The notes under the pieces are model-generated. The model was not told the DNA's origin. It searched no databases and was given only the letters and a program-made list of their open reading frames with translations. Shown here in pieces: positions 37,926-60,463 of a DNA stretch of 64,000 nt. Every line of letters begins with the position of its first letter. The stretch's first letter is position 1. Source of the stretch: an uncultured Chthoniobacter sp. (GTDB lineage Bacteria; Verrucomicrobiota; Verrucomicrobiia; Chthoniobacterales; JACTMZ01); the NCBI GenBank assembly GCA_964609925.1, contig CAZSUJ010000008.1:4785-68784 (forward strand), written 5' to 3'. The position numbers were made by a program, and so were the translations under genes.

Positions 37926-38028
37926 ACGATGAAATCCTGACGGATGGAGAGTGTTCAGTTTTCAGTGCTGGGAGTCGGGGCGGGAATCGGCGTTTGCGAC
38001 GCCTGCGACCGCGGGTTAGGCTGCGGAC

Positions 38029-38205
38029 ATGAGCACCGCGGTTCTTGAGCTGAAGGAAAAAGTCGAGCGCCTCACTCCCGAGGAGCGGGCCGAATTGATG
38101 CAGATCCTCGAAGACATAGAGGACAATGCGTTGGCGGATAAGGCTGAGGCGGAGGGGAACTGGACGTCGTTCGACACCTTGAAGAAGGAATTGGGTCGCG
38201 CATGA
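38029..38205 (+). CDS. small antitoxin (addiction-module component) paired with RelE/ParE
   Basis: 58-aa ORF absent from the track. I read MSTAVLELKEKVERLTPEERAELMQILEDIEDNALADKAEAEGNWTSFDTLKKELGRA. ATGA overlap with the toxin start. Confidence 0.6.
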   Translation: MSTAVLELKEKVERLTPEERAELMQILEDIEDNALADKAEAEGNWTSFDTLKKELGRA

Positions 38206-38465
38206 CCTGGGAGGTCGTCTTCAGCGACTCCTCCAAGAAGTTCCTGAAGAAACTGCGGGACGCCGCGCTTCTCGACCGCCTGCTGGCCGCACTGGAGAAA
38301 CTGGCGACCAACCCGCGGCCGCAGGGATGCCGCAAGCTTTCTGGGACAACGGATCGCTACCGGATTCGCGTCGGGGATTACCGGATCATTTACCGCATCG
38401 ACGACGGAAAGGTGACCGTGCTTGTGCTGGTCATCGGTCATCGGCGCGAGGTTTACGACGGCTGA
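38202..38465 (+). CDS. RelE/ParE-family type II toxin
   Basis: 87 aa. FLKKL..NPRPQGCRKLSGTTDRYRIRVGDYRIIYRIDDGKVTVLVLVIGHRREVY is a classic RelE/ParE pattern. Confidence 0.85.
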   Translation: MTWEVVFSDSSKKFLKKLRDAALLDRLLAALEKLATNPRPQGCRKLSGTTDRYRIRVGDYRIIYRIDDGKVTVLVLVIGHRREVYDG

Positions 38466-38650
38466 GCAGGAAGGCTGCGACGGTGGGGATTGCGGCGTTG
38501 AGGGTCTATGGTTGAAGGTTGAGGGACCGAAAGGCAGCAGGTTGCGAACGAGTGGCCGGTTGCCCTGCGAGGTAGGCTTGGCAACGGCTTGTCGCCTCGG
38601 TCTTCAATCCCTCAACGCTCATCTCTCAACCCTCAACACCGTCTCCTCTC

Positions 38651-42118: not shown

Positions 42119-42148
42119 GGCGGGGAAAATCGGCCGTGGCGCGGTGCC

Positions 42149-42166
42149 GGTCAACCGGGAATCAAG
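42149..42166 (+). repeat. 18-nt perfect direct repeat, left copy
   Basis: GGTCAACCGGGAATCAAG is identical to 42857..42874. The two copies bracket the DUF433/DUF5615 cassette. Confidence 0.7.
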
Positions 42167-42232
42167 AGAGGGAACCCGCGGGAACGCCAAACGCCATTTG
42201 CGGGCGGTCGACTGGCATGGTAAGTGGTCGGC

Positions 42233-42484
42233 ATGGCCGCAGTGCTGACCGCTGACCAGATCATCGTCCGCGACCCCACGGTTTGCGGAGGCCAGCCGGT
42301 GATCAAGGGGACAAGAGTGACCTTGCGCACAATTCTGGCCACCCTCGCGGAGGGAGCTTCAGTCGAGGAGATCACCAAGGCATTCCCCACCCTGCGCGCC
42401 GCCGATGTTCAAGCTGTGATTGCTTACGCTGCATCTTCAGCGGAGGAAGACTTGCCCGTGAGCGGCTTGCCAACCGGCTTGTGA
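42233..42484 (+). CDS. DUF433-family antitoxin-like protein
   Basis: ATG 42233 inside ORF 42224..42484. DPTVCGGQPVIKGTRVTLRTIL..GASVEEITKAFPTL is the DUF433 signature. Confidence 0.75.
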   Translation: MAAVLTADQIIVRDPTVCGGQPVIKGTRVTLRTILATLAEGASVEEITKAFPTLRAADVQAVIAYAASSAEEDLPVSGLPTGL

Positions 42485-42846
42485 AGATCAAGCTGGACGA
42501 GAACCTGCCGAGGACGTTGGTGGAGGTTCTTGGAAACCTCGGCCACGAGACGGACACAGTCCCGGACGAAGGCCTGCAGGGCGAGTCGGATGACGTAGTC
42601 TGGCGGACCGCGCAGGAAGAAGGGCGCTTCCTCGTCACCCAAGATCTGGACTTTTCCGACATCCGGAAGTTCGCACCCGGAACCCATCATGGCCTCATGC
42701 TCGTGCGCCTGCGCTTGCCGAGCCAGCGCGGTTTGGAATTGAGGGTTGGCACCGCCTTCGAGGAGATGGGTAGAGGCGACGGTTGGGCCGGGGCGTTCGT
42801 CGTTGTGTCCGACTTGAAGGTGCGTGTCAGCTTGCCCGATCGCTGA
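42481..42846 (+). CDS. DUF5615-family (PIN-like) toxin-like protein
   Basis: GTG 42481 inside ORF 42283..42846. (V)KIKLDENLPRTLVEVL..DDVVWRTAQEEGRFLVTQDLDFSD is typical of the DUF5615 partner of DUF433. GTGA overlap. Confidence 0.7.
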   Translation: MKIKLDENLPRTLVEVLGNLGHETDTVPDEGLQGESDDVVWRTAQEEGRFLVTQDLDFSDIRKFAPGTHHGLMLVRLRLPSQRGLELRVGTAFEEMGRGDGWAGAFVVVSDLKVRVSLPDR

Positions 42847-42856
42847 CCGCGCCACG

Positions 42857-42874
42857 GGTCAACCGGGAATCAAG
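42857..42874 (+). repeat. 18-nt perfect direct repeat, right copy
   Basis: GGTCAACCGGGAATCAAG. It overlaps the stop codon (42870-42872) of the LolA-like gene. Confidence 0.7.
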
Positions 42875-43628
42875 GAGCGGCGAAATCTGCGTCCTTCAGC
42901 GTGACGTCGTGGCGGATGTTCGAGCCGTCGATCTCGGTCGTGCCGCCGCCGGGGCCGGTCACGGTCATGGCGGCCGGCACCGGGCGGCCGAGGTCGTCGC
43001 GGGCGGTGAGGGTCGTTTCGATGCGGCGTGCGAGCTTGCCGTCGCGGTCGTATTTCTCGACGCGGAGCGGGAGCATTTTGCGCGGGTCCACCCAACTGCG
43101 GACGCGGCCGTAGGGTGTCGGGTCGCCGGCGGCGGGCTTCGAGTCGAGGATGAGGCATTCGGCCGCGCCGATCTTCTCCGTGCCGGCGAGCGTTTGGCCG
43201 GGCCAGAGGAAGAAGTTCTCCACGACATCCTGCAAAGCGAGGTCCGACCCGAGGAGGCTGTCGCCGGCCTGTGCGCGGCCGAGTTCGCGGCGGGTGTCGG
43301 GCGGCGTGAGCGATGCGCCCTCGATGGCGCCGCCGGGTTTCTGGCGAAGGACGACCGTCTCGCCCTTGCGTTCGGGCGGCCAGATGACCTGGTAGGAGAC
43401 CTCGGCTGATGACTTGGTGCGGCGCGCCTTGATCTGGACCTGCAACTGGACGGGCGCGGCGGAGCCCGCGGGAGTGAACTTGAACTTCGCCCGCGCCACC
43501 GAATCGCCGTCCTGCACGGCAGCCGCGAGTCCGGAGGCGAGTTCGGCGGCGTCGGGGGCGGCCTTGGACGGCGCGGCGCAAGCAAGCAGTCCGAGCAGAC
43601 AGCAGGCGGCGGGGAAGGTCCGACCCAT
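42870..43628 (-). CDS. LolA-like outer-membrane lipoprotein-sorting family protein
   Basis: ATG 43628 inside ORF 42870..44138 gives the signal MGRTFPAACCLLGLLACAAPSKA. It is a roughly 250-aa beta-rich protein placed as the last gene after a MacB/LolCDE-type ABC pair. The call rests on context and size. Confidence 0.5.
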   Translation of the reverse strand: MGRTFPAACCLLGLLACAAPSKAAPDAAELASGLAAAVQDGDSVARAKFKFTPAGSAAPVQLQVQIKARRTKSSAEVSYQVIWPPERKGETVVLRQKPGGAIEGASLTPPDTRRELGRAQAGDSLLGSDLALQDVVENFFLWPGQTLAGTEKIGAAECLILDSKPAAGDPTPYGRVRSWVDPRKMLPLRVEKYDRDGKLARRIETTLTARDDLGRPVPAAMTVTGPGGGTTEIDGSNIRHDVTLKDADFAAP

Positions 43629-43660
43629 GTCTGGCATCAAGTCTCGGGGCGGGCCCGGCG

Positions 43661-44776
43661 TCAACCCTGAAGCGCCACGCTCGGGGACAGGCGCGAACTC
43701 CGCCACGCCGGATAGAGGCCGCTGACGATGCCGACGGCGACCGCGATCAGCACCGCCTGGATGGCGAGCGGCCAGCCGAGGTCGGGCTCGAGGAAACCGC
43801 GCACCATCGGCGTCACTTCGAGGAGCGCGAGGGTGACGGCACCGAGGACGACGCCGACGATGCCGCCAATGAGGCCCATCACCGCCGACTCGCAAAGCAC
43901 GAGGGCCATGATACGGCCGCGCCGCCAGCCGAGCGCGAGGAGGATGCCGATCTCGTGTTTCCGTTCGAAGACGCTCATCAGCATCGTGTTCATCACGCCG
44001 AGAACACCCACCACGAGGGCGAGGAGCGACGTGCTCCAACTCATGGCGCGGGCGACCTGGAAACCCTGGCTCGTGCCCACGACCTCGCGCGCCTTCACGG
44101 CGCGCAGGCCGGGGTGGGTCTCCTCGATGCGGCGGCACAGGGCGTCCACCGCCGCGGCGTCCGCTCCCTCGGGGACGCGGATGTTGATGAAGTTGGCGCG
44201 CCCGTCGTAGCCCGAAACTTCCTGGAAGCGCGGGAGGGCGAGATTGATCGCGCCGTTTTCCATGACCGACTGCCCGTCCACGATCCCCACGACCTCAAAG
44301 TCGCCCGTCTCGACCTGCAGTCGGTCGCCGGGTTTCTTGCGCAGAACCTGCGCGGCAAGCTTGCCGAGGACGACGGCGGGCTCCTCGGCATCGCGGGGCA
44401 GACGTCCTTCGATCAGGCGGAACTGGTCCCAGGTGAAGGAGCCCCATTCGCGTCCGTAAACAACCATCATCGGCGCGTCCTCGACGCTGAGCATCTGCAT
44501 GAGCGTGGCATTGGCCTCGGCCACCCCGGGAATCGCGGCGATGCCGTCGCGCACCGACTCGTCGAACGCCTTCGGCATGATGCCGCCCTGCATGTTGCTC
44601 ACGATGACGTCGATGCCGATCACGTCGAGTTGGTTGACCACGCTTTTCTCGTAGCCGGAAGAAAGCCCGACCAGCGTGACCACGGCGCCGATGCCGATGG
44701 CGATGCCGAGCACGGTGAGGCCGGTGCGGACGGGGCGGCGCCAAAGACCGCGGAAGATGACTTGGAGGAAAGTCAT
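43661..44776 (-). CDS. ABC transporter permease (FtsX/MacB type)
   Basis: 371 aa. N-terminal RGLWRRPVRTGLTVLGIAIGIGAVV, a large periplasmic loop and three C-terminal transmembrane segments. Confidence 0.85.
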   Translation of the reverse strand: MTFLQVIFRGLWRRPVRTGLTVLGIAIGIGAVVTLVGLSSGYEKSVVNQLDVIGIDVIVSNMQGGIMPKAFDESVRDGIAAIPGVAEANATLMQMLSVEDAPMMVVYGREWGSFTWDQFRLIEGRLPRDAEEPAVVLGKLAAQVLRKKPGDRLQVETGDFEVVGIVDGQSVMENGAINLALPRFQEVSGYDGRANFINIRVPEGADAAAVDALCRRIEETHPGLRAVKAREVVGTSQGFQVARAMSWSTSLLALVVGVLGVMNTMLMSVFERKHEIGILLALGWRRGRIMALVLCESAVMGLIGGIVGVVLGAVTLALLEVTPMVRGFLEPDLGWPLAIQAVLIAVAVGIVSGLYPAWRSSRLSPSVALQG

Positions 44777-45486
44777 GGTCGCGAAGCCCCGTCCCCTTGG
44801 TCCTCCGAGACGATCCGGCCGTCCTTCATGCGGATCATGCGCGCCGCGTGCCGCGCGATGGCGGCGTCATGGGTCACGAGGACGAGGGTGACACCGTGGT
44901 CGGCGCGGAGGCGCAGGAGGAGTTCGAGCACGTTGTCGGAGTTCGTGCTGTCGAGGTTTCCGGTCGGCTCGTCGGCGAGGAGGATGGCCGGGCGGTTGGC
45001 GAGGCTGCGGGCGATGGCCGCACGTTGGCGTTCGCCGCCGGAGAGTTTCACGGGGAGGTGGCCGAGCCGGTGGCCGAGCCCGACCGATTCGAGCAATTCG
45101 ACCGCACGCGCGCGGCGCGAGGCGCGGCTGCCGGGCAGACCGAACATGGGGATCTGCACGTTCTCCTCGATGGTGAAATTCGGCAGGAGGTGGAACGACT
45201 GGAAGATGAAGCCGATCTCCCGTGCGCGGTAGGCGGCCGGGTCGGGCAGGTCGTGCAGCACCTGGCCGCGGAAACGCAATTCGCCGCCGGTGGGGCGGTC
45301 GAGCAGGCCGAACATGTTCAGCAGCGTCGTCTTGCCGCACCCGCTGGGCCCCACGATCGAGACGAACTCACCGTGGCCCACGCGCAGGTCGAGTCCGCGC
45401 AGCGCGGGCACGCGGCCGTCGTCGTATTCACGGGCCAGCCCGCGCGCCTCATAGAGCGGCTGGTCGGCGGAAGCGGGCCCGGACAT
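44773..45486 (-). CDS. ABC transporter ATP-binding protein (LolD/MacB type)
   Basis: Walker A GPSGCGKTT, signature LSGGERQR and Walker B ILLADEPT. Confidence 0.9.
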   Translation of the reverse strand: MSGPASADQPLYEARGLAREYDDGRVPALRGLDLRVGHGEFVSIVGPSGCGKTTLLNMFGLLDRPTGGELRFRGQVLHDLPDPAAYRAREIGFIFQSFHLLPNFTIEENVQIPMFGLPGSRASRRARAVELLESVGLGHRLGHLPVKLSGGERQRAAIARSLANRPAILLADEPTGNLDSTNSDNVLELLLRLRADHGVTLVLVTHDAAIARHAARMIRMKDGRIVSEDQGDGASRP

Positions 45487-45489
45487 CGG

Positions 45490-46443
45490 TCAGGGGACCG
45501 ACGCCCACTGGCGTCCGACGCGGGGGTCGCGCAGGCTGCGCAGGAGGTGGACGAAGGCCGAGCGGTAGTTCGGGAACGGGACGATGTCCTCTTCCTCCTC
45601 CGGCTCGATGAGGTGCTTGTTGTCGGGCAGCTCGAAGAAGGGGATCGAGCTCTTCACGTGGTGGACGCCGTGCAGCGGTTGATGGAGCAGGCTGATCGAG
45701 ACGAGTTTGCCGGCGAACGACTGGCCGATGATGCTGCGGGTGGCGCTCGGACCGCTGTGCCCGCTCAGGCCGACGTGCTCGATGTATTTGCGCCAGCTCT
45801 GCATGTTGCCGGCGATGAAGGCGGGGATGAAGTAGAGGACGAGGAACCAGACCCAGAGGTTAAACCAGGCGACGACGCCGAGGAGGGTGCCCCAGAAGAC
45901 GACCATGCCAACGGTTTCGATCCAGATCCGCCGCCGGACGGCCTTGTTCGTCACCGGCGAGGGCCGCTGCAGGAAAACGCGCCAGAAGAGGAACGGGGTG
46001 TAGAAGAAGCCGAAGTTCAGTTCGAGGAACGCGGCGAGCCGGCGCCACCAGAGCGGCTGCTGCGGGTCGACGAAGGGCCAGAGCTCGAGGTCCTTGGTCG
46101 AGGCGAGGTTGACGTGGTGCTTCTGGTGCAGGGCGCGGTAAAGCGTGAAGGGAGTAACGCTGATCATGCCGACGAGGACGCCGTCGAACTCATTCCACAG
46201 CTTGTTCCCCCGCAGGCTGCCGTGGGCCGCCTCGTGGAACGCGATGAGGAAGGCGTGCATCAGGTGGCTGAGGAGCAGGACGAGCGGGATGAGCAGCCAG
46301 ACCCAACCGCGGTAGAGGCAGTAGGCCGTGACCGCGGTGGTGAGGTAGTAGGATCCGGCCACGAGGGTGAACGAGGCGCGGTTGGCCCACGGCTCCCAAG
46401 CGCCGGTCTCGGTGGACGAAGGAATGGTTTCGGTCGTGTTCAT
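45490..46443 (-). CDS. membrane fatty-acid desaturase family protein
   Basis: Three His boxes: HEAAHG, HQKHH and HGVHH. Confidence 0.8.
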   Translation of the reverse strand: MNTTETIPSSTETGAWEPWANRASFTLVAGSYYLTTAVTAYCLYRGWVWLLIPLVLLLSHLMHAFLIAFHEAAHGSLRGNKLWNEFDGVLVGMISVTPFTLYRALHQKHHVNLASTKDLELWPFVDPQQPLWWRRLAAFLELNFGFFYTPFLFWRVFLQRPSPVTNKAVRRRIWIETVGMVVFWGTLLGVVAWFNLWVWFLVLYFIPAFIAGNMQSWRKYIEHVGLSGHSGPSATRSIIGQSFAGKLVSISLLHQPLHGVHHVKSSIPFFELPDNKHLIEPEEEEDIVPFPNYRSAFVHLLRSLRDPRVGRQWASVP

Positions 46444-47811
46444 TCAGGCGTTGAAGTTGAGTCCGGCATCCGGGTTGCGGACGACTTGGTCCAGCACCCC
46501 GCGGAACGTCCGGTCGAGGTCGTTCAGATCCTCTTCGGGAACAATGGATGGTCGGTTCATCCATATCAATTCGATACGTTTCCCGTCCTCGGTCAACTCG
46601 CAAGCGAGGTCGAAGCGCGAGGTTCCGCTGGAGAGGTTGCGCAGGCTCGACGACATGCCGGGGACCTCGATGCCGGGGAACGGGTGGTTCTGCACGGCGA
46701 AGCGCACGTCGAAGACGGCATGGCGGCGGCGGGGCGACTCCCGCTCGACGGCGGCAGCCAACTCGACGAACGGCATGGCGCGGGCGAAGTCCTCGATGGA
46801 TTCGGCGTGGACGGCGCGGGCGGTGGCGGAGAAGGGGGCGGACGGATCAACGCGGCCGCGCAGCGGCACGATGCCGGAGAAATAGCCCATGGTTTCCTTG
46901 AGGGCGGACTTGCCGCGTCCGGCGGTGGGCGTGCCCAAGACAACATCGTCGGCACCGCGCCAGCGGTGAAGCGCGAGACGGAACGCGGCGAGAAGGACAC
47001 TGAAGAGCGTGACGCCCGTCTGGCGCGCGAGCCCGCGGACCGCCTCGGCCAACTCCGCCGGGAGGTGGCTGACCCGTTTCGCCACGGGGTCCATCGGACC
47101 GGGCGGGGCATCGAAGAGCGGACGTGATCCCGCGAGGCGGTTGCGCCAGTAATCGGCGGCCTCGCCGAGAACGGCGGGCTGCCAGCGGGCCCGCTCAGCC
47201 GCGCCCCACGCCGAGTAGCTCATCTCCAACGGCGGCAGCGAGTCGCGGAGGCCGCGCAGGCGCGACATGTCGCGGCCGGACGACCGCCAGATGCTGATGC
47301 AAGCGGTGTAGAGGTCCTCCACAAAGCTGGTCACTGTCCAGCCGTCGGCGATGGCGTGGTGGATCGTCAGCCCGAGCGCGTGGTGGTCCGGCCCGCGGCG
47401 CACCATTTGCAAGCGGTAGAGCGGCCCGCGGCGCAGGTCGAACGGCCGGGAAAAACCTTCCTCCATCGAGGCGGTTATCTCCCCGTCCGGCAACGACGGA
47501 TCGTCGAGTTCGTGGTAAGCGAGGACCGGCTCGGCTTGCGCACGGACGAGCTGCACCGGGCCCTCCCTTCCCGGGAGGAACGAGGTGCGCATCGCTTCCT
47601 GGCGCGCGACGACGAGACTCATCGCGTCGCGGCAGAGATCGCCGGTGAGCGGGCCGCGGAGGTCGATGTAGGAACGGATGTGGTTGGACGCGTCCTCGGG
47701 AGGAACCGGCGAGGTTTCCCAAAGTTCGCGCTGCGGAAAGGTCGCAGGCACGAGCCGCACCTGACCGCTGGCCACGAGTTCCTGCAGCCGCGTTTTGCCG
47801 TCCTGCTCCAT
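46444..47811 (-). CDS. stand-alone condensation-domain (PapA/NRPS C-like) acyltransferase
   Basis: 455 aa with the catalytic HHAIADGWT (HHxxxDG). Confidence 0.8.
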   Translation of the reverse strand: MEQDGKTRLQELVASGQVRLVPATFPQRELWETSPVPPEDASNHIRSYIDLRGPLTGDLCRDAMSLVVARQEAMRTSFLPGREGPVQLVRAQAEPVLAYHELDDPSLPDGEITASMEEGFSRPFDLRRGPLYRLQMVRRGPDHHALGLTIHHAIADGWTVTSFVEDLYTACISIWRSSGRDMSRLRGLRDSLPPLEMSYSAWGAAERARWQPAVLGEAADYWRNRLAGSRPLFDAPPGPMDPVAKRVSHLPAELAEAVRGLARQTGVTLFSVLLAAFRLALHRWRGADDVVLGTPTAGRGKSALKETMGYFSGIVPLRGRVDPSAPFSATARAVHAESIEDFARAMPFVELAAAVERESPRRRHAVFDVRFAVQNHPFPGIEVPGMSSSLRNLSSGTSRFDLACELTEDGKRIELIWMNRPSIVPEEDLNDLDRTFRGVLDQVVRNPDAGLNFNA

Positions 47812-47819
47812 GCCCGGCC

Positions 47820-50800
47820 TCAGGACATGCCCGCCGGCGAGGGCTTGCGGGGGGTGTCGGCGTCGGCATCCGCGAGGATGTCGTCGAGTTCGGACTCGCT
47901 GAGCGCGGCCAGATCAACGTCGGCCACATCGGCCTCGCCGGCGGAAGGCCCAGGCACCGCTGCGGGCGACGGTTCGGGCGACGCGCCGCCGAGGTGGCTG
48001 TGGATGAGGCTGCCGATCTGGCCGATCGTGCGGGCGCGCATGAGGCTGGCGGGCGGCAGGGTCACGCCGATGGAGGTCTCGATGAGGTTCTCGATCTCGA
48101 CGCCCATGAGCGAATCCAGCCCGAGGTCAGTCAGCGGTTGGTCCGGGCGGAGCGAATCGGGCTTCACGCGCAGGACCGAACCGACGATGTGCTGCAGGGC
48201 CTGCACGATGACGGCCTCGCGTCCTTCGGCCGGAGCCGCTTCGATGCGTGCGCGCCAGTCGCCGGCCGGCCCGGTCGTCTCGGCTTCCTCGGTCTCGGTG
48301 GCGAGGATGCGTTCGATGAGGGGATTCTCCTGCAGGCCGCGGAAGGCCTGCCGCCACTTGCCCCAATCAACGCGCAGGGCCGCAGCCTGCGGTGTCCGGG
48401 CGTCGAGGAAGGTTTCGAGGAGCGCGGTAACCTCGGCGGGATCGAGCGCAGCCGTGCCTTGGCGGAGGAGGTATTCGGCGACCTTCTCATTGCGCGCGAC
48501 GTAGCCGTCGCCGCCGAGCACGCCCCAGTTGACGGCGAGGGCCGGAAGTCCGAGGGCGCGACGATGATGGGCGAGCGAATCGAGGAAGGCGTTGGCCGCG
48601 GCGTAGTTCGCCTGGCCGGGGTTGCCGAAGACGCTGGAGACGGAGGAGAAAAGGACGAACGCGTCGAGGTCCATGCCGGTCGTGGCCTCGTGCAGCAGCC
48701 AGGCGCCGAGGGCTTTCGGCCTCATGACCGTGGCCATGCGCCCGGGCGTGAGGTCGGCCAGCGGCGCGTCGTCGATCACCATTGCGAGGTGGAAGACGCC
48801 CTTCAGGACACGCCCGCTGGTGCGGACCGCCTCCATCACGGCCGCCACGCCCCCCGCGGTGCCGACGTCGGCGGCGACAGCAAGGGCATCCGTTCCCGAG
48901 GAACGCAGCTCGGCGAGAAACTCCGGCGCCCCCTCGGCCTCCGCGCCCTTGCGTCCGGTGAGCACGAGGTGTTGTGCCCCGCGCTTCGCGAGCCAGCGGG
49001 CGAGCACCTTGCCGAAGCCGCCGAAGCCGCCCGTGACGAGGTAGGTGGCGTTCGGATCCACCTCGAACGCGGTCCGCAGCGGCTCGCTGCGGCGCGGGAT
49101 GAGCGGTTCGGCAAACCCGAGGATGACCTTGCCCGAATGCTTGCCGGCGGCCATGAGGCGGAACGCGGCATCCACACGCGCCGGCGGGAAGGACCGGTAG
49201 GGAAGCGGACGCAGGGCGCCGGTCTCCATGAGCCCGGCGATCGTTCCCATCAGATCCCGCGTGAGCGATTCGTCGCCGGCGAAGACCGCGTCCATGGCCA
49301 CGACGTGGAAGGACGCGTTGCGGCGCAGGTGCCAGAGAGGGAGGCGCGCGTTTTGGTAGATGTCGCGCTTGCCGATTTCGATGAAGCGGCCCGATTCGGC
49401 GAGGCAGGAAAGGCCCATCGGGATGGCCTCGGCGGCGAGGGCGTTGAGGACGACGTCAACCCCGCGTCCGCCCGTCAACTCCATGACCCGCTCGGCGAAG
49501 TCGCCGCGACGCGAGTCAATCACATGGTCGGCCCCGAGGGTGGTGAGGAGGGCGCGCTTGGCCGGGCTGCCGGCCGAGGCGATGACCTTCGCACCGAGAT
49601 GCCGCGCGATCTGGATCGCCGCCATGCCGACGCCGCCGGCCCCCGAGTGGACCAGCACCGTCTCACCGGCGCGCAACCGGGCCACGGTGGAAAGCGCGTG
49701 CCATGAAGTCATGAAGACGACGGGGATCGTGGCGGCCTCCTCGTATGTCATGCCTTCGGGCATCGGACGCACATCCGCCGCCCGCGCCAGCGTGTGCGTG
49801 GCGAGCCCGAACACGGCGAGCCCGAACACGGAATCGCCCGGCTTCACGTGGTGGACCCCCTCGCCCACCGCCACGACCTCGCCGGCAACCTCGTCGCCAT
49901 ACATCCTTGCGTCAGCCGTCTCAGCCGGGTAGAGGCCGAGTCCCTTGAGGACGTCGCGAAAATTGAGCGCGGCCGCGCGGGTGCGGATCAGGACCTCGCC
50001 GTGGCCGCAGACCGGCATGGCGAAGGCGGTGAACTTCAAGCTGTCGAGACTGCCGCGCTCGCGCGACTCCAGCCGGAGGGGGACGGTGTCCGGCAACTCT
50101 TGCTCCGCCACTTCCAATCCGCGGGCGAAGCGCTGCACGTAGCGCGCCTCGCCGCGCAGGGCGACCTCGCGCTCGGGTTCGCGGCTGAGGAGTTCGCGGG
50201 TGAGCGCGCCGAGGTCGTCCGCCCCGGGCGACGCCGGGAGGTCGATCGCGCGGCAGGCGACGTGCGGATGCTCGCTGAGAAAAACGCGGAAGAACCCGAG
50301 CACCGCGCCGGCGACGGGCGGGACGGGCGGGCAGTCGCGTCCCGCGGGCTGGGCGCCGCGGGTGACCAAGTCGAGCCGGATGCGCGCCGCCGGGGCGAAG
50401 CCGTCGAGAAGGCGCGCCAGTTGCAGCATGTCGTCCATGCCGAGGGACTGCTCCACGCCGGCTGGTTCGGTGCTCCAGAGATAGACGAAGCGCTGCGGCG
50501 GATTGCCGGACGCGAGTTCGGCGGCGAGTTGCTCCCAATGGGTGGGGTCACCCGGGTGCATGATGACCTCATCCCCTGCGGACGCGAACCCGTCTCCCTG
50601 CAACACCAAGCGGCAGGAAGCTCCGCGCGCGCGGAGCCAATCGGCAAGCCATGCACCAATGCCGGAGCGGTCGGCGAAAACGACCCACGACAAGTCCTCG
50701 GGCGACGACTCATCTTCCGGCAACGCCGCGGGCGCGTCCCACGCCTTGCGCGCGAGCACTCCCACCTGCCCCTCGCCGTCGTCCGCATCGCGAAGGCCCG

Positions 50801-53800
50801 GCAGGCTCGCGGTCTCGACGAAACCCGTCTCGCGCAGCAACTCCTCCCAGCGCTCGCGGGCGAGGAGCGGATGCTCCGGGCGCAGGTCGCGGTCCTTCAG
50901 GCTCCACCAACCGCTGGTCAGGCCGAAAATCGCCTCGGTCCAGAGCCGCGGCGTGGCCACGTCCATGAACATGAGAGTCCCGCCCGGCGCGAGCAAACGG
51001 TGCAGCCCGGCGAGCGAGGCGCGAACGTCGGCCACGGCATGGAGGACGTTCGTGCCGATGATGATGTCGTAGGCCCCGGGCTCGAAATCCTGATCCTCGG
51101 GCGGCCGCTCGAGGTTGAAGACGCGGAACTCGACCTCGGGGAACGCCGCCAGCTTCTGCTGCGCGGGCGGGAAGAATCCCGTCGAGACATCGGTGAACGT
51201 GTAGTGGTGCAGGCCGCGCTCGAGTTGCGGAAGGACATACGAGGCGAGTCCGCCCGTGCCCGCGCCGACCTCGAGGATGCGCAGTCCGCGGCCGTCCGGC
51301 AGCGCCGCGGCGGCCCGGCGCACGGCGGCCGCCAGACCGGCCAGCCAGTGAGCAGTGAAAAGTCCGTCGCCGTAGAATTGCTCAAGCAGATCCGTCCCAG
51401 CACCCGCGAAGAGCACCTGCACGGCGTCCTTGTCGCCGCGCATGATCGGACCGAAGTCCGCCCCCGTGGCCGCGCACAGCATCGCCTCGGACAAATGCCC
51501 CGGCGCCGCGCCGAGAAAATCCCTCAAGTCTTGCGACGCCTTCTCGGCCAACCGGCCGAGGGCGTCGCTCGCGCGCCAACTTCCGGGACCGGTCCCGTCC
51601 ACGAGGCCGCGTCGGCCAAGTTTTTCCATGAGGCGGGTGAAGACCGGACGCATCCCGGCGGCCACGCCGAGCGACTCGGCGGAAAACCCGCGCCCCGGCT
51701 GGACGCCCATGGCGACGAGTCCCGCGGCGACCTGCGAGGCGGCCAGATCGTCCTCCCAAGCCAGGACCGACTCCAGCCGTTCGCGCCCGCGCAGGGCGAG
51801 CACGGCGTCAAGGGCCTCGGCGGCCACGGAGTGAAGTTCGCCCAGCGGCACGGGGATGAGCGGCGTCCGGGGGACGGCGGATTTCAACCTCTCCCAATCG
51901 AGGTGGTAAACAAGCTCACGCCCCTCACCCGTGGCGGAACCGGCGCGGCGGGCCGAGGTGAGCGCCATCGCGCGGAAGCCGTCGATCAGCACGCACGGCT
52001 CGCCCTCGTCGTCATAAATCCCGATGCGGCCGCCCGTGACTTCCTCGCTGCATTGCGTGACGGAGGCGCGCACGCGCCCGGACGCACCCAGCGGGCGCAG
52101 GAAGAGGATGCGGCCGAAGCGCACCGGGAGTTTCAACTTCACGCCGCGCGACTCGACGGTGCGCGCGGCCGCGGAAAAGACGTGCAGGGCGCCGTCGAGC
52201 AGGACGGGATGGACGGCGTATTCGCCGGCGCGCCGGGCCGAGTTCTCGGTGAGCGCGATGAGGCCGCATGATTCGCCCCCGCGCGCGTGCAACTCGCTCG
52301 CGGCACGGAACTCGGGCCCGTAGGGCAGTCCCTTGCCGCGCTTGTGCTCGTAGTGCTCCTCGATATCCGCGGGATCAAGATCCCCGCCGGGCGGGATCCA
52401 GCGCGTGGCCTCGAACGCCGACTCGGTCCGTTCGCCGCGCAGAGATCCGACCACATGGACGGACCAGGTGGTTGAAGGTTCGAAACGGCTCTGCACGGTG
52501 AAGGTGCGTTCCGTCGGATCGTAGGCCAATTCGAGCAGCACGCTGTCCGCCGGATCGGGAAGGATGAGCGGCTTGCGGATCTCGAGGTCCTCGACGGCAA
52601 ACGGCCGCCCTTCAAAAATCTCCACGCCCGCCTCGAGCGCCATCTCGATGAAGCCGGCGGCGGGAAAGACGATATGGTTGTCCACGCGGTGATCGCGCAG
52701 GTAGGCGAGGTGCCGCTCGTCGAGGCGCGCCGTCCAGGTGGGAACCGAGCGCGGAAGGCGCGCGTCGAGGAGGCCGCGCCCGCCCGGCGCGAGGCGGCTG
52801 TGGCGCATTTCGGAAGACTCGTGCCACCAGCGGGCCTTGTTCCACGGATACGACGGCAGGGAAAGCAAGCGGCGCGAGGGCGTCATCGCCGCGAAGTCCA
52901 CCGCAACGCCCATCCGGTGAAGATCGAGCGCGGCCTCGACGTCCGCCTCCTGCTCGCGTTCGCGGCGCGTCGCGGAGACGACCGACGCCGTGCGTCCCGC
53001 GGCGCCGAGGCATTCCTGCACCGAGAGCGCGAGGGCCGGGTGGGCGCTGATTTCCAGCCACACATCCACGCCATGCTCGGCCAGCGCCGCCACGGCGCCG
53101 GTGAACAGCACGGGTTGGCGGATTCCGGCGGCCCAGTAGGACGCGGTGCAGTCGGCACCGGCGCAGCGCATGCCGGTCACGGTGCTGAAGAACGGGATTT
53201 GCTCGTCGGACGGACGCAACCCCTGCAGCGCGGACTCCAGCGTCTCGGCGGCGGGGCGCATCATCGCGTGGTGGAACGGATGCTGGACGCGGACGAAGCG
53301 GTTGAAGACTTCGCGCGATTCGAGCTCGGCGGCCATCGCCTCCAGCGAAGTGCGCAACCCCGCGATGGTGAGCGAGCGGGGGCCATTGAAAGCCGCCACG
53401 CTGGCCGCGGGATCGTGGCGCGCGATGAGATCGGCCGCGCCCTCCGCGTCCAGCCCGACCGCAAGCATCGCGCCCTCGTGGCGGGCGCAGCCGGACATGG
53501 CCTGCGCGCGGATGACGATGATGCGCGCAGCCTCCTCCATCGGCAGGATCCCGGCAACGCACGCGGCGGCGAGTTCACCGACGCTGTGGCCGACGATGGC
53601 CGACGGACGGACCCCGCGCGATTGCCAGAGCGCGGAAAGCGCCATCTGCATGGCGAAGATCGCCGGTTGGCCGACCTCGGTCTCGCCGAGGCGGGTGGAC
53701 TTCTCATCGCGTCCGAGCTCCTCGAGCAGGTCGAAGTGCGCGTGCGGCTTCATGGCCTCGGCGCATGCCAGCATCATGTCGCGGAAGACCGGTTCGGCTC

Positions 53801-55484
53801 TCATGAGTTCGCGCCCCATACCCCACCATTGCGGCCCCTGTCCGCTCATGACGAAGGCGACGCGGGGGGCGGGTTCGCCGTGCGGGGTGAAGGACGTCTT
53901 GATGCCGGGCGACACGCCTTCCGCGGCGAAGGCCGTCAGCTCCGCGGAGAGTTGCGTGAAATCCCGCACGGGCAGCGTGAGGCGGTGCGAGTGGTGGTTG
54001 CGCCGCACGCCGAGCGTGTAGGCAAGGTCGGCGGGCGAGGCATCCGGCCCCGCCTCGAGCCAAGCCGCGAGGTTCCGCGCGGCGGTGCGCAGCGATTCCT
54101 CCGAGCGAGCCGAGAGCATGACCGGCCAAGCGCGGGAGTCGGCGGTCGTTGCGGGCGGTTGCTCCGCGGCGGCGGGCGGTTCCCCGACGATGGCGTGGGC
54201 ATTGGCCCCGCCGAAACCGAACGAGTTGACCCCGGCGACCCTCGGGCCGCCGCCAACGGCCGGGAAAGGCTCGACGCCCGTCGGCACACGCAGGCGCCAC
54301 GCCTCGAAGTCGATGTGCGGGCTCGGCGTCTCAAAGTGGAGACTCGGCGGAATGAGGCCGTGGCGGACCGCGAGCGCCGCCTTGATGATGCCGGCGATCC
54401 CCGCCGCGGTCTCGAGGTGACCGAGGTTCGTCTTGACCGAACCGATGGTCAGGGGACGAGGACGATCCTCGCAAAGAGCCCTCGCCAGCGCGTGGGCCTC
54501 GATGGGATCACCAACCGCGGTGCCGGTGCCGTGCGCTTCGACGTAGCCGACATCCGAGGGGCGGACGCCCGCGACGCGGCAGGCTTCGACGACGAGCCGC
54601 GCTTGCGCTTCCTCGCCGGGAAGCATGATGCCGTTCGTGTGGCCGTCCTGATTGGCCGCGGTGCCAAGGATGACGGCATAGACGGGATCGCCATCGGCCA
54701 GCGCGCGCGACAACGGCTTGAGCAGGACCATGCCGGCGCCCTCGCCGCGCACGAATCCGTTCGCGCCCGCATCGAAGGCGCGGCAACGGCCGTCCGGCGA
54801 AAGCATCGAGGCCTGCGAGAAACCGATGAAGCCGTCCGGCGTGATCATGACGGTCACGCCCCCCGCGAGCGCGGCCGCGCAGCGTCCGTCGCGGAGGTGC
54901 TGGCAGGCCACATGGACCGCGGTGAGGGCGGACGAGCACGCGGTATCCATGGCGATGCTCGGGCCGGTGAGGTTGAGGCAGTAGGAAATGCGGTTGGCGG
55001 CGATGCTGTGGGCGTTGCCGGTGGGCGAATGCGGGCTGATTCCGGCGCGGTCGGCCGTTCCGCCCTGGATCATCTGGTAGTCGGTGTGCGAGATGCCGGC
55101 GAAGACGCCGATGTCCGTGCCGTTGTCGTGGTCGAGCACGATCCCCGCGTCCTCGATGGCCTCCCAGGATGTCTCGAGGAGGAGGCGCTGTTGCGGATCA
55201 ATGTAGGGCGCCTCGCGGGGAGAGATGCCGAAGAACTGCGGATCGAAGAGGTCGATGCCGTCGATGAACCCGCCATGGCGGGCCATGGATTTGCCCGGGA
55301 TGCCCGGCTGGGGGTCGTAGAAACGGGAGACGTTCCAGCGGTCCGGCGGGACCTCGACCACCGCGTCGCGCCCCTCGAGGAGGAACTTCCAGAAATCCGC
55401 GGCGCTGTTGAGTCCGCCGGGGAACCGGAGGCCGACGCCGATGATCGCGATCTTTTCGTCCTGCATTTCCTGAAGCTGAAGCAC
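47820..55484 (-). CDS. type I polyketide synthase, KS-AT-DH-cMT-ER-KR-ACP, no TE
   Basis: KS (DTACSSAL, EAHGTGT, NLGHLE), AT (GHSVGE), DH (HRVDNHIVFPAAG), MT (ILEVGAGTGG), ER (LVHSGAGGVGMAAIQ), KR (YLVTGGFGGFG) and ACP (LGLDSLMGVE). The start is either GTG 55484 or ATG 55466. Confidence 0.92.
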   Translation of the reverse strand: MLQLQEMQDEKIAIIGVGLRFPGGLNSAADFWKFLLEGRDAVVEVPPDRWNVSRFYDPQPGIPGKSMARHGGFIDGIDLFDPQFFGISPREAPYIDPQQRLLLETSWEAIEDAGIVLDHDNGTDIGVFAGISHTDYQMIQGGTADRAGISPHSPTGNAHSIAANRISYCLNLTGPSIAMDTACSSALTAVHVACQHLRDGRCAAALAGGVTVMITPDGFIGFSQASMLSPDGRCRAFDAGANGFVRGEGAGMVLLKPLSRALADGDPVYAVILGTAANQDGHTNGIMLPGEEAQARLVVEACRVAGVRPSDVGYVEAHGTGTAVGDPIEAHALARALCEDRPRPLTIGSVKTNLGHLETAAGIAGIIKAALAVRHGLIPPSLHFETPSPHIDFEAWRLRVPTGVEPFPAVGGGPRVAGVNSFGFGGANAHAIVGEPPAAAEQPPATTADSRAWPVMLSARSEESLRTAARNLAAWLEAGPDASPADLAYTLGVRRNHHSHRLTLPVRDFTQLSAELTAFAAEGVSPGIKTSFTPHGEPAPRVAFVMSGQGPQWWGMGRELMRAEPVFRDMMLACAEAMKPHAHFDLLEELGRDEKSTRLGETEVGQPAIFAMQMALSALWQSRGVRPSAIVGHSVGELAAACVAGILPMEEAARIIVIRAQAMSGCARHEGAMLAVGLDAEGAADLIARHDPAASVAAFNGPRSLTIAGLRTSLEAMAAELESREVFNRFVRVQHPFHHAMMRPAAETLESALQGLRPSDEQIPFFSTVTGMRCAGADCTASYWAAGIRQPVLFTGAVAALAEHGVDVWLEISAHPALALSVQECLGAAGRTASVVSATRREREQEADVEAALDLHRMGVAVDFAAMTPSRRLLSLPSYPWNKARWWHESSEMRHSRLAPGGRGLLDARLPRSVPTWTARLDERHLAYLRDHRVDNHIVFPAAGFIEMALEAGVEIFEGRPFAVEDLEIRKPLILPDPADSVLLELAYDPTERTFTVQSRFEPSTTWSVHVVGSLRGERTESAFEATRWIPPGGDLDPADIEEHYEHKRGKGLPYGPEFRAASELHARGGESCGLIALTENSARRAGEYAVHPVLLDGALHVFSAAARTVESRGVKLKLPVRFGRILFLRPLGASGRVRASVTQCSEEVTGGRIGIYDDEGEPCVLIDGFRAMALTSARRAGSATGEGRELVYHLDWERLKSAVPRTPLIPVPLGELHSVAAEALDAVLALRGRERLESVLAWEDDLAASQVAAGLVAMGVQPGRGFSAESLGVAAGMRPVFTRLMEKLGRRGLVDGTGPGSWRASDALGRLAEKASQDLRDFLGAAPGHLSEAMLCAATGADFGPIMRGDKDAVQVLFAGAGTDLLEQFYGDGLFTAHWLAGLAAAVRRAAAALPDGRGLRILEVGAGTGGLASYVLPQLERGLHHYTFTDVSTGFFPPAQQKLAAFPEVEFRVFNLERPPEDQDFEPGAYDIIIGTNVLHAVADVRASLAGLHRLLAPGGTLMFMDVATPRLWTEAIFGLTSGWWSLKDRDLRPEHPLLARERWEELLRETGFVETASLPGLRDADDGEGQVGVLARKAWDAPAALPEDESSPEDLSWVVFADRSGIGAWLADWLRARGASCRLVLQGDGFASAGDEVIMHPGDPTHWEQLAAELASGNPPQRFVYLWSTEPAGVEQSLGMDDMLQLARLLDGFAPAARIRLDLVTRGAQPAGRDCPPVPPVAGAVLGFFRVFLSEHPHVACRAIDLPASPGADDLGALTRELLSREPEREVALRGEARYVQRFARGLEVAEQELPDTVPLRLESRERGSLDSLKFTAFAMPVCGHGEVLIRTRAAALNFRDVLKGLGLYPAETADARMYGDEVAGEVVAVGEGVHHVKPGDSVFGLAVFGLATHTLARAADVRPMPEGMTYEEAATIPVVFMTSWHALSTVARLRAGETVLVHSGAGGVGMAAIQIARHLGAKVIASAGSPAKRALLTTLGADHVIDSRRGDFAERVMELTGGRGVDVVLNALAAEAIPMGLSCLAESGRFIEIGKRDIYQNARLPLWHLRRNASFHVVAMDAVFAGDESLTRDLMGTIAGLMETGALRPLPYRSFPPARVDAAFRLMAAGKHSGKVILGFAEPLIPRRSEPLRTAFEVDPNATYLVTGGFGGFGKVLARWLAKRGAQHLVLTGRKGAEAEGAPEFLAELRSSGTDALAVAADVGTAGGVAAVMEAVRTSGRVLKGVFHLAMVIDDAPLADLTPGRMATVMRPKALGAWLLHEATTGMDLDAFVLFSSVSSVFGNPGQANYAAANAFLDSLAHHRRALGLPALAVNWGVLGGDGYVARNEKVAEYLLRQGTAALDPAEVTALLETFLDARTPQAAALRVDWGKWRQAFRGLQENPLIERILATETEEAETTGPAGDWRARIEAAPAEGREAVIVQALQHIVGSVLRVKPDSLRPDQPLTDLGLDSLMGVEIENLIETSIGVTLPPASLMRARTIGQIGSLIHSHLGGASPEPSPAAVPGPSAGEADVADVDLAALSESELDDILADADADTPRKPSPAGMS

Positions 55485-55490
55485 CGGCGG

Positions 55491-56816
55491 TTACGGTTCC
55501 GGATGCGCCTTGATGAAGGCGGAGAACCAACGCCCGGTCGGCTCGAGGATGCGGTCCTTCGTCACCGGGTCGTAGCTGAAGAGCCCGAACTGGCCGTGCC
55601 AGCCCTCCTTCCATTCGTAATTGTCCACGAGGGTCCAGGGGAAGTAGCCCCGCACGTCCACCCCGGCCTCCATGGCCCGGCGCATCTGCGCGATGTGCTC
55701 GCGGAGATAGCGGATGCGCTTGCGCTCGCTCTGCGTGCCGAGGCCGTTCTCGGAGATGATGACGGGCTTGCCGTAGCGTTTGTTCACGGCGGTGAGCACA
55801 TTGAAGAGCCCCTCGGGCACGATCTCCCAGCCGAGTTGGGTGTAGTCGGACGACATCTCGCCGTGGCCGCGGCTGAGGAAGCGCAGGATGCTGGCGTCCT
55901 GCGAGTAGTAGTAATTGACGCCGATCATGTCCATCGTGTCGGCCACCATGTCGAGGTGGTCGTAGTTCTGCCGCTGGACGATGTTGTAGATGAACTTGGT
56001 CGGGTCGAGCAGGACGCGGCGGCGCCATTCGGGCAGCGAGTAGATGCCGATGATGATCGCGTCCTTGCGGTGGGCGCGGACGATGGCGGCGGACTCGCGG
56101 AACATCTCCGCGGCCTCGCGCATGGCCTTCTTGTAGCCGAACGCGTTCAGGAGCAGCCCCGGCGGCCAGTGCCCGGCGATCCAGCCGAGTTGGAGGGCGC
56201 CGTTGGGCTCGTTCTGCGGCACGTAGATGCGGACCTGCGGGCCCATGGCCTTCACGACGCGGGTGACGTGGCGACGCCACGCCTCGCGGACATCGGGGTG
56301 GAGGAAGTTCGAGCGGCCCTTGTTTTTCGGATCGTAGAGCCAGTCGGGGAAGGTGAAGTGCCAGAGTGTGACGATTGGCTCGATGCCGGCGGCGCGGAGC
56401 TGGCGGGCCATGCGGACGTATTGGGCCAGGGCCTTCTCGTTGATCACGCCGGGCTTGGGCTCGACACGCGCCCACTCGACGCCGAAGCGGAAGTGGGTCA
56501 CGCCGAGTTGCTTGAGGGCGGCGATGTCCTTGTCGAACCGCGTCCAGGAAAACACCGCGTCGTCGCCGCGCACGGGCGCATGGCCCTCGACGCCGTAAAC
56601 ATCCCAGTCCGTCTGGAAATACATGGGCGAGCCGGGCTTCTCTCCGCGGTCCTCGTTCTGGAAGCTCGCGGTCGAGGTCCCCCACCAGAACCTCTCCTTC
56701 GGCAGGCGCTTGGTCACGACGGGGTCCGCGGGCGGATGGTAGGGACCGGGCGGCGTGACGCAGCCGGCGAGCAACAGGCATGCGGCGACTAGGATGATTG
56801 CTCCGGCTTGCTTCAT
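55491..56816 (-). CDS. glycoside hydrolase family 1 lipoprotein
   Basis: ATG 56816 inside ORF 55491..57089. Lipobox LLLAGC, acid/base YVPQNEPN and nucleophile VIISENG. Confidence 0.85.
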   Translation of the reverse strand: MKQAGAIILVAACLLLAGCVTPPGPYHPPADPVVTKRLPKERFWWGTSTASFQNEDRGEKPGSPMYFQTDWDVYGVEGHAPVRGDDAVFSWTRFDKDIAALKQLGVTHFRFGVEWARVEPKPGVINEKALAQYVRMARQLRAAGIEPIVTLWHFTFPDWLYDPKNKGRSNFLHPDVREAWRRHVTRVVKAMGPQVRIYVPQNEPNGALQLGWIAGHWPPGLLLNAFGYKKAMREAAEMFRESAAIVRAHRKDAIIIGIYSLPEWRRRVLLDPTKFIYNIVQRQNYDHLDMVADTMDMIGVNYYYSQDASILRFLSRGHGEMSSDYTQLGWEIVPEGLFNVLTAVNKRYGKPVIISENGLGTQSERKRIRYLREHIAQMRRAMEAGVDVRGYFPWTLVDNYEWKEGWHGQFGLFSYDPVTKDRILEPTGRWFSAFIKAHPEP

Positions 56817-56842
56817 GGGCGCGAGACTATTTACTGGGCACC

Positions 56843-57757
56843 ATGTTCGCAAAGCCTCAACTGGCCGCACTCGCCCTGCTCGTCGCCGCCCTTCCCGCCG
56901 CTGCCCAGACCCCGCGCAGCCCGACGCCCGACCGTTTGGAGATGAAGGACGGCTCGGTGCTCCGGGGCATGATCCTGCGCAACGAAGCGAACGCGGTCCT
57001 TTTCCAGACGACCTCCGGCGAGCGCCTCGTGTCAAAGAACGACATCCGCCGCATCCACGAGGAAGCCGATCGCGACATCTACCTCGCACAGGTCACGGCG
57101 CCGGGCCGCCTGCCCTCATGGATGGCCATCCTCCACGACTTCCGCGACCATGACTCGATCTGGCGCGTCCAGTTCATCCCGTCCGTGCGGCACGATACCG
57201 GCGAACTGCGCAACATCCCCTACCTCTCGTTCAACGTGAACCGCCAGGGCGTGATGAACATCTACGGTCCGCCCGAGGACCCGGTGGCGATCCAGTTCGG
57301 CATCTTCGGCAAGCGCGGCCGCAGCGACAAATACCACCAGATCGTGCGCGAATTCCTCGGCGGTCACCTCAACAGCCGCCGGGCGATCGCCACGCTCTAT
57401 TCACTCTCGCTGCGCGGCGACAAAAAGGCGGCCGACGGCCTCGTCTTCATCATCACGCCGCCGAGCCAGCCCGAGTCGCACGGCGGTTGGTGGCTCACCG
57501 TGGCCGACGCCGACCGTCTCGAGGGGGCCCGCGTCCCGGACGCGAAATACGCCGCGGCGACCCGGCCGTTCGAGGACGTCTTCCACAAGGACGGCACCCT
57601 GAGGGAGGACAACGCCCAGAGATTCGACCAATGGCTGGTCGGCACACTCACGCGCCTGCCCAGCCAGTTCCCGAAAATCCGCGGATTCTACCGCGACGAG
57701 CAGGGGACATTCCGCCTGATGCAACTCGACACGCCCTGGTTCTCGGCCGGGCTATAG
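56843..57757 (+). CDS. hypothetical secreted protein
   Basis: ATG 56843 inside ORF 56798..57757 gives the signal MFAKPQLAALALLVAALPAAAQ. No family was recognised. Confidence 0.5.
   Translation: MFAKPQLAALALLVAALPAAAQTPRSPTPDRLEMKDGSVLRGMILRNEANAVLFQTTSGERLVSKNDIRRIHEEADRDIYLAQVTAPGRLPSWMAILHDFRDHDSIWRVQFIPSVRHDTGELRNIPYLSFNVNRQGVMNIYGPPEDPVAIQFGIFGKRGRSDKYHQIVREFLGGHLNSRRAIATLYSLSLRGDKKAADGLVFIITPPSQPESHGGWWLTVADADRLEGARVPDAKYAAATRPFEDVFHKDGTLREDNAQRFDQWLVGTLTRLPSQFPKIRGFYRDEQGTFRLMQLDTPWFSAGL

Positions 57758-59014: not shown

Positions 59015-60459
<1,445 letters not shown>

Positions 60460-60463
<4 letters not shown>

Follow-up and report, generated by a model that had tools for sequence, protein, structure and literature searches.

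A conserved six-gene operon of Verrucomicrobiota with a proposed role in making and exporting a methyl-branched cell-envelope lipid

What does a polyketide synthase (PKS) without a thioesterase (TE) make, and how do its products leave the enzyme and the inner membrane, when its gene is followed by those of a free-standing condensation (C) enzyme and a Lol-like transport set? This question is raised by seven tightly packed genes at positions 42870–56816 of a 64,000-nucleotide stretch from an uncultured Chthoniobacter sp. (contig CAZSUJ010000008.1), hereafter referred to as the window. On the basis of gene order in relatives, the conserved unit is composed of six of these genes, which encode the PKS, the C enzyme, an integral-membrane protein of the di-iron desaturase/hydroxylase family (DES), an ABC ATPase, a type VII ABC permease, and a secreted LolA-like protein; the seventh gene, for a glycoside hydrolase family 1 (GH1) lipoprotein, lies outside it. 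It is proposed, with a probability of roughly 0.55, that the six-gene operon directs both the synthesis of a cell-envelope lipid and its removal from the inner membrane. A bolder and considerably more tentative proposal is that this lipid may belong to a previously unseen class of polyketide lipids, methyl-branched by S-adenosylmethionine (SAM) and present in several Verrucomicrobiota lineages, which would be released by the C enzyme and carried along a Lol-like periplasmic route repurposed from lipoproteins. An initial annotation of the window, made from its letters alone, knew of no characterized product for this gene combination; in agreement with it, a survey of the open-access literature and bioRxiv returned neither a paper on the combination nor one on a product from these lineages.

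Gene layout and conservation

All seven genes lie on the minus strand. Open reading frame (ORF) calls and translation reproduced the coordinates initially annotated as well as the described spacing of 0–32 nt or overlap between neighbors. The GH1 gene ends 6 nt before the PKS gene if the latter starts at its GTG codon and 24 nt before it if an internal ATG is used. The PKS and C genes are separated by 8 nt, the start codon of DES directly abuts the stop codon of the C gene (a gap of 0 nt), and 3 nt separate DES from the ATPase gene. The ATPase and permease genes overlap by 4 nt, and the LolA-like gene follows after 20–32 nt, depending on the start codon chosen. A scan of positions 42000–58000 returned no promoter-like sites and three terminator-like sites, compared with 8.2 expected from shuffled sequences, none of them at a gene boundary. 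A search for sequencing runs listed 20 of the DNA type and none of RNA.

A pattern scan of species-level genomes yielded 347 loci with a relative of the C enzyme, of which 80 were kept for a synteny tally. Ten loci were also cut from the genomes of relatives; the two sets overlap in part (e.g., L014 = L021, L017 = L022, L016 = L027, and L012 = L023). All 80 loci come from metagenome-assembled genomes (MAGs) of Verrucomicrobiota, whose names include Chthoniobacter, Terrimicrobiaceae, Prosthecobacter, Luteolibacter, Akkermansiaceae, Brevifollis, and Pedosphaera. The order PKS–C–DES–ABC–FtsX–LolA-like is found in all ten cut-out loci, one of which sits on a contig that ends before the LolA-like gene. 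Within the 80-locus set, a PKS gene lies directly upstream of the C gene in 62 of 73 judgeable loci, the 11 loci counted as lacking it including some split alignments, and DES lies downstream of the C gene in 67 of 72. DES, ABC, FtsX, and LolA-like genes are all present in 42 of 53. Where the C gene has no adjacent PKS gene, a PKS orthologue (~2570 aa) is encoded elsewhere in the genome (5 of 5 genomes checked) and shares 64–70% identity over the ketosynthase (KS) and acyltransferase (AT) domains. The recurrence of this gene order in relatives indicates that the arrangement is not a product of chance. The operon had initially been described as one of seven genes; six of these are co-conserved, whereas GH1 lies beside the PKS gene in only 4 of 36 judgeable loci of the 80-locus set and in 4 of the 10 cut-out loci.

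The operon is widespread in some Verrucomicrobiota lineages and patchy overall. By name, the close homologues of the C enzyme belong to Chthoniobacterales, Terrimicrobiaceae, and Verrucomicrobiales. Among 16 other genomes of the same order, one strong match to the C enzyme (48% identity) was found, together with only three weak matches of the nonribosomal peptide synthetase (NRPS) type.

Chain assembly, release, and docking

The PKS (2554 aa; 47820–55484, with a GTG start at 55484 and an alternative ATG at 55466) is a single-module type I enzyme without a loading module. Its Pfam domains follow the order KS–AT–dehydratase (DH)–C-methyltransferase (cMT)–enoylreductase (ER)–ketoreductase (KR)–acyl carrier protein (ACP): PF00109/PF02801 for KS, PF00698 for AT, PF21089/PF14765 for DH, PF08242 for the methyltransferase, PF08240/PF00107 for ER, PF08659 for KR, and PF00550 for ACP. 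No TE domain was found by Pfam. All catalytic motifs are conserved across 45 PKS sequences, including the KS cysteine and both histidines, the AT motif GHSVGE, the DH histidine and aspartate, the SAM-binding motifs of cMT, the NADPH motifs of ER and KR, and the DSL motif of ACP. The description of the enzyme as a fully reducing, methylating single-module PKS without a TE is thus borne out by both domain order and motifs.

The substrate of the AT domain can be considered from its second motif, H-P-F-H, which carries proline in 42 of 45 orthologues and alanine in the remaining three. The combination of GHSVGE with H-P/A-F-H is taken, by motif rule, to be of the malonyl type, so that the HPFHH stretch initially flagged as unexpected reads instead as a conserved variant of the malonyl-type HAFH. 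Given a malonyl-type AT and a conserved cMT, methyl branches should come from SAM. The KR motif is, by the same kind of rule, presumably of the type that precedes dehydration. The PKS would extend a primer (acetyl or fatty acyl) with malonyl units, C-methylate with SAM, and fully reduce each unit; it could work iteratively, as mycocerosic acid synthase (MAS) does, or perform one extension of a fatty acyl primer. Its product is probably a methyl-branched saturated acyl chain held on the ACP. The host genome (3.55 Mb in 211 contigs, 97.8% completeness) has no other PKS-type KS and one match to the phosphopantetheinyl transferase family.

Among solved structures in the PDB, the best relative of the PKS is full-length MAS (9d2z, 1033.8 bits). 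The architecture resembles the MAS/PapA5 pair of phthiocerol dimycocerosate (PDIM) synthesis and the Pks2/PapA1–PapA2 set of sulfolipid synthesis, in which a TE-less reducing PKS is likewise served by a separate acyltransferase of the condensation fold with an HHxxxDG motif. However, MAS uses methylmalonyl-CoA, whereas the branches here should be introduced by cMT on a chain built by a malonyl-type AT. The NCBIfam model for Pks2 (NF041183) is the second-best family match of the PKS but, at 1208.2 bits, falls well short of its cut-off of 2400, and the C enzyme is only distantly similar to the PapA proteins. PDIM and sulfolipid are exported by mycobacterial transporters, while the operon described here encodes an ABC/LolA-like set in a diderm host.

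The C enzyme (455 aa; 46444–47811) matches PF00668 over residues 21–450 with 185.8 bits (cut-off 30.6). Its catalytic motif reads HHAIADGWT, in which H151, H152, D156, and G157 are invariant both in a set of 30 orthologues and in a set of 78; 59 columns are invariant among the 30 sequences. Catalytic conservation, on which the initial reading depended, is therefore intact, and the stand-alone enzyme directly follows the PKS in most judgeable loci, as tallied above. The nearest solved relatives by sequence are NRPS C domains (5u89, Txo1/2, TycC, and a didomain of a peptidyl carrier protein (PCP) and C), and the free-standing enzyme SgcC5 is matched with an E value of 1e−16. PapA5, PapA2, and VibH are not among the best 60 of 74 PDB profile matches, and neither PapA5 nor PapA2 occurs among 46 phmmer matches. 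Longer relatives are ordinary modules of C, adenylation (A), and PCP domains with at most 36% identity. No orthologue fused to another protein was seen among proteins of 798–2275 aa; longer proteins, in the size range of a PKS–C fusion, lay outside the search.

The predicted model of the C enzyme, with a mean predicted local distance difference test (pLDDT) score of 88, points in the same direction. Its structural Z scores are 35–38 for NRPS-type C domains overall (38.4 for TomBC and 36.4 for Txo2), 36.0 for the C domain of MokA, 35.5 for SgcC5 (4znm), and 30.9 for VibH (1l5a). Lower values are obtained for the enacyloxin release enzyme (6cgo, 28.1), PapA2 (6aef, 26.9), and PapA5 (1q9j, 23.9). 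Because the enzyme is nearer to NRPS C domains both by sequence and by the Z scores of its model, it is best classed, on these comparisons, as a recruited NRPS-type C domain in a PapA5-like or enacyloxin-like role rather than as a member of the PapA family. The comparison with PapA5 made at the outset thus holds for the role but not for sequence or fold (Z of 23.9 versus 35–38).

Stand-alone C folds that use a carrier-bound donor and no carrier-bound acceptor are exemplified by Bamb_5915 (6cgo), SgcC5, and VibH, which the C enzyme resembles in this respect at 14–23% sequence identity. A different parallel is offered by the fungal highly reducing PKSs LovB and MokA, in which the same KS–AT–DH–cMT–ER–KR–ACP order is followed by a C-fold unit; LovB and the C domain of MokA were both matched, the latter sharing 17% sequence identity with the C enzyme. 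In contrast to LovB and MokA, the operon encodes the C unit as a protein of its own, and both its HHxxxDG motif and the ER motif of the PKS are intact. Neither an A domain nor a PCP was found within the operon or in its flanks, whether in the window or among relatives. With no gene for adenylation or for a carrier alongside, a free metabolite or the head group of a lipid is the probable acceptor. The C enzyme would pass the chain on to a nucleophile made outside the operon, for example, the amine or hydroxyl group of a common metabolite or of such a head group.

How the two proteins might find each other is suggested by their adjoining termini. In the tails of 45 PKS orthologues, a conserved acidic motif lies behind the ACP; in the window, it reads VDLAALSESELDDIL (47874–47918, minus strand), and its family form is VDL-D/E-ALSDE-E/D-I/L-D-x-LL. 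A basic element, likewise delineated from 45 orthologues, occupies codons 4–22 of the C gene (47746–47802, minus strand), with the family form R-x-R-L-K-x-W-L-x-S-G-x-A-R-L-x-P-L; in the predicted model, it consists of a helix (residues 5–15) and a strand (18–22). We infer that the acidic tail and the basic N-terminus may form a docking pair, such that the soluble C enzyme would dock on the tail behind the ACP. In the enacyloxin system, a short C-terminal motif of the carrier recruits the N-terminal docking domain of the C enzyme (PMC9113145). The operon is similar in that the conserved tail of the PKS is acidic and the conserved N-terminus of the C enzyme basic; it differs in that the N-terminal element is ~20 residues long and not a full β-hairpin docking domain.

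The membrane di-iron enzyme and the export genes

DES (317 aa; 45490–46443) matches PF00487 with 110.8 bits against a cut-off of 29.7. Its histidine boxes HEAxH, HQxHH, and HGxHH, together with a motif RKYxEHxG, are invariant in 72 sequences. No NCBIfam model reached its cut-off, the best being the hydroxylase GntB (33 bits versus 380), CrtR, and DesA; no sequence match was found in the PDB, and a look-up in a protein atlas returned generic desaturase clusters only. DES would act after the C enzyme, either desaturating or hydroxylating the lipid.

The ATPase (237 aa; 44773–45486, PF00005) is of the LolD/MacB/DevA type. Against NCBIfam, it scores best with LolD (224.4 bits; cut-off 307.75); the score for DevA is 182.1 bits (cut-off 295.8). 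The permease (371 aa; 43661–44776) combines a MacB-like periplasmic core (PF12704) with a C-terminal FtsX domain (PF02687) and shows 74% mean column identity over 46 orthologues. The lolCE model scores 57.1 bits, far below its cut-off of 362.45, and the MacB model scores 199.6 bits against a cut-off of 966. The operon contains one permease gene, in the window and in relatives alike. Six further matches to MacB-type permease domains occur elsewhere in the host genome.

The LolA-like protein (255 aa; 42870–43637) matches PF17131 with 65.5 bits, and its relatives in the PDB are 4z48, 3bk5, and 9tp6. Sec-type signal peptides are present in 48 orthologues with no conserved lipobox, so that the protein should be soluble in the periplasm. 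It is proposed to serve as a periplasmic lipid carrier. A complex of the permease periplasmic domain (residues 42–243) with the mature LolA-like protein (residues 27–255) was modeled from 46-row alignments, giving a median score of 0.66 compared with 0.00 for the best control. At least 91% of the contacts agreed between runs, and the partner pLDDT was 91 or higher; the mark applied to such models is attained by 116 of 157 solved complexes and by 2 of 215 mismatched pairs. The result favors a contact of the LolA-like protein with the permease, with E99 and Q154 among the predicted contact residues on the permease side. The path from PKS to C enzyme to exporter is well backed by conservation, DES, ABC, FtsX, and LolA-like genes all being present in 42 of 53 loci. 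The ATPase and permease, acting as a type VII ABC machine like LolCDE, would extract the lipid, and the LolA-like carrier would receive it and deliver it to the outer membrane or the cell surface.

The trio shares its ATPase and permease families with LolCDE–LolA, MacAB–TolC, and DevBCA. As in LolCDE–LolA, a periplasmic partner of the LolA superfamily is predicted to contact the periplasmic domain of the permease. It departs from that system in having one permease gene instead of two, a carrier of PF17131 instead of PF03548, and scores below the cut-offs of the corresponding models. Unlike MacAB–TolC and DevBCA, the operon of the window has no membrane-fusion (HlyD-type) protein and no outer-membrane channel gene, as judged by Pfam, and the DevA and MacB models remain below their cut-offs. 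An HlyD-type gene occurs only in the variant locus L068 (11361–15853), from an Akkermansiaceae MAG, where an HlyD-type adaptor and an AcrB-type resistance–nodulation–division (RND) pump follow the PKS and C genes. This exchange suggests that the chemistry never comes without some exporter.

Aryl polyene clusters offer a further precedent. They encode a LolA-like ApeL, an RND transporter ApeM, and a LolB-like ApeN, whose proposed task is to bring the lipid to the outer membrane (PMC8253772). They resemble the operon in combining genes for a polyketide-type lipid with their own LolA-like protein and an inner-membrane transporter. Their synthase is type II-like with separate enzymes and their transporter of the RND type, whereas the operon encodes a type I megasynthase together with an ABC pair of type VII; no LolB-like gene was seen in the operon.

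Several loci contain additional genes within the unit. In four of them, a gene for a lipoprotein of ~60–70 aa lies between the DES and ATPase genes (L046, ~12440–12649; L057, 12364–12555; L067, ~10560–10763; L087, ~4853–5056); it is absent from the window. The encoded protein, for which no Pfam match was found, has a signal peptide with a lipobox, an Asp/His run, a Thr run, and a conserved end of the form VEERRVAP...ETRVIRSY. A 370-aa gene without a Pfam match is inserted between the ATPase and permease genes of L048 (13072–14184). In L043 (14321–19974), a 1285-aa patatin-like phospholipase and an α/β hydrolase are inserted before a second permease-like gene. The host genome itself encodes a second LolA_like (PF17131) protein on contig C19 (L107, 6359–7048), beside genes for PAP2, a PMT_2-type membrane glycosyltransferase, and LpxK.

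Competing readings, surroundings, and significance

Several observations weigh against an envelope lipid as the product. An orthologue of the C enzyme (E ≤ 1e−164) is present in 13 of 24 genomes of the same genus and, at E ≤ 1e−80, in 3 of 400 further genomes drawn evenly from the phylum, all three from one genus; so patchy a distribution is more readily expected of an accessory product than of a core envelope lipid. The C enzyme has its nearest relatives among NRPS C domains that depend on carriers and form amides, yet no carrier gene accompanies the operon, and no acceptor-making gene, A domain, or carrier protein is conserved beside it in the window or in the flanks of relatives. Type VII ABC machines are known to extract their substrates rather than flip them, and the operon contains no flippase. 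The score of the complex model may reflect only likeness to solved complexes of the LolC–LolA type. In L068, finally, the DES/ABC/permease/LolA-like block is replaced, leaving the locus with neither a desaturase-like nor a LolA-like gene.

The strongest competitor, although itself unlikely, holds that the same core makes a secreted amphiphile, such as an N-acyl amine or N-acyl amino acid with a function as surfactant, signal, or antibiotic, and that the trio provides efflux or self-protection. Its patchy, accessory distribution would be natural for such a product, as would the amide chemistry of the nearest C relatives and the presence in L068 of an RND pump and HlyD adaptor, a typical efflux set, in place of the trio. 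The flanks also vary, with neighboring genes differing from genome to genome across the ten relatives and eight variant loci. However, a soluble LolA-like carrier, predicted to contact the permease, is better suited to a water-insoluble cargo that is handed on than to a pumped solute, the operon of the window has no gene for a membrane-fusion protein or an outer-membrane channel, and a membrane-embedded di-iron enzyme implies an intermediate that resides in the membrane.

A further possibility, hinted at in the initial annotation but improbable, is that GH1 acts with the other six genes in the synthesis or remodeling of a glycolipid, the C enzyme using a sugar as its acceptor. The GH1 lipoprotein (441 aa; 55491–56816, with its ATG at 56816; PF00232, 214.5 bits) has a signal peptide ending in the lipobox LLAGC and retains the motifs QNEPNG (NEP) and SENGLG (ENG), which are presumed by motif rule to hold the catalytic glutamates of GH1 enzymes. 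The gene precedes that of the PKS on the same strand at the short distance given above, and the closest relatives share this GH1–PKS arrangement. Against this stand its rarity beside the PKS elsewhere and its constant association with another gene. A divergently transcribed gene for a secreted 304-aa protein (56843–57757, plus strand) starts 26 nt from the GH1 start codon and accompanies GH1 in all four GH1-bearing loci of each set examined; its product, which has no Pfam or NCBIfam match, shows 75% mean column identity over five sequences and a model pLDDT of 58. Because GH1 always occurs with this divergent gene, the two look like a separately inserted pair, and GH1 is, by its distribution, a lineage-specific accessory neighbor outside the conserved unit. 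Moreover, conserved glycosyltransferase genes are lacking both within the operon and next to it, the flanks of the ten relatives and eight variant loci yielded neither a conserved glycosyltransferase nor a conserved acyl-AMP ligase, and the GH1 hydrolase would be exported beyond the cytoplasm, where the C enzyme resides. The hint of a glycolipid is weakened as a result.

Equally improbable is that the C enzyme serves as a release catalyst without an external acceptor, hydrolyzing or cyclizing the chain so that a methyl-branched acid is set free or a lactone is formed. The operon encodes no acceptor pathway, and hydrolytic chain release by C-like domains is known. Yet with its complete HHxxxDG motif and its many invariant positions (59 columns among 30 sequences), the enzyme resembles transfer-competent C domains, and SgcC5, VibH, and the enacyloxin enzyme all use small-molecule acceptors, as far as entry titles, a review, and background knowledge indicate.

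Least probable of all is that the trio is a lipoprotein-sorting system that merely neighbors the PKS and C genes: the absence of any match to canonical LolA (PF03548) in the 97.8%-complete host genome, LolD as the best NCBIfam match of the ATPase, and the small lipoprotein gene of four loci are outweighed by the co-conservation of the trio with C and PKS in 42 of 53 loci, the LolD and LolC/E scores far below cut-off, the single permease gene, the second LolA-like gene in an envelope-gene context elsewhere in the genome, and the lack of a C orthologue in 11 of 24 same-genus genomes, too patchy for a housekeeping function, although there the C enzyme and not the trio was searched for. The more specific idea that the trio is the housekeeping Lol system of the genome was rejected on the same grounds of co-conservation, sub-cut-off models, and patchy C orthologues.

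The surroundings of the operon in the window are diverse. A DUF5615/PIN-like gene (42283–42846, plus strand) converges on the end of the operon and was not found in the flanks of the relatives examined. Beyond it lies a gene for a 1179-aa protein with PA14, bacterial Ig, glucose/sorbosone dehydrogenase, and cytochrome c domains (38651–42190, minus strand), in a region of strong GC skew (0.20–0.25). Farther away, a type I restriction–modification system comprises R (26324–28897), M (29624–31375), and S (31318–32691) genes; downstream of it, within the span 26324–38600, a low-GC stretch (51–54% versus 68%) encodes a 1312-aa ORF without a Pfam match and a 248-aa ORF. On the other side of the operon, two adjoining PDZ genes (59015–62064, plus strand) are found, the first with a trypsin-like protease domain (HtrA-like) and the second with PDZ matches only.

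Although Verrucomicrobiota abound in soils and fresh waters, little is known of the lipids of their envelopes or of their natural products. The operon is a compact, self-contained six-gene unit that recurs in many lineages of this phylum. Even if its product should turn out to be a secreted amphiphile, it would still represent an orphan biosynthetic family. If the envelope-lipid reading is correct, the operon would define a new class of methyl-branched lipids and a second, independent case in which release from a PKS by a trans-acting condensation enzyme feeds the cell envelope. It would also provide a test case for the transport of lipids other than lipoproteins by a LolA-like protein and a type VII ABC machine and, on the bolder proposal, would constitute a diderm counterpart of the surface-lipid logic of mycobacterial MAS/PapA5, equipped with its own periplasmic shuttle.

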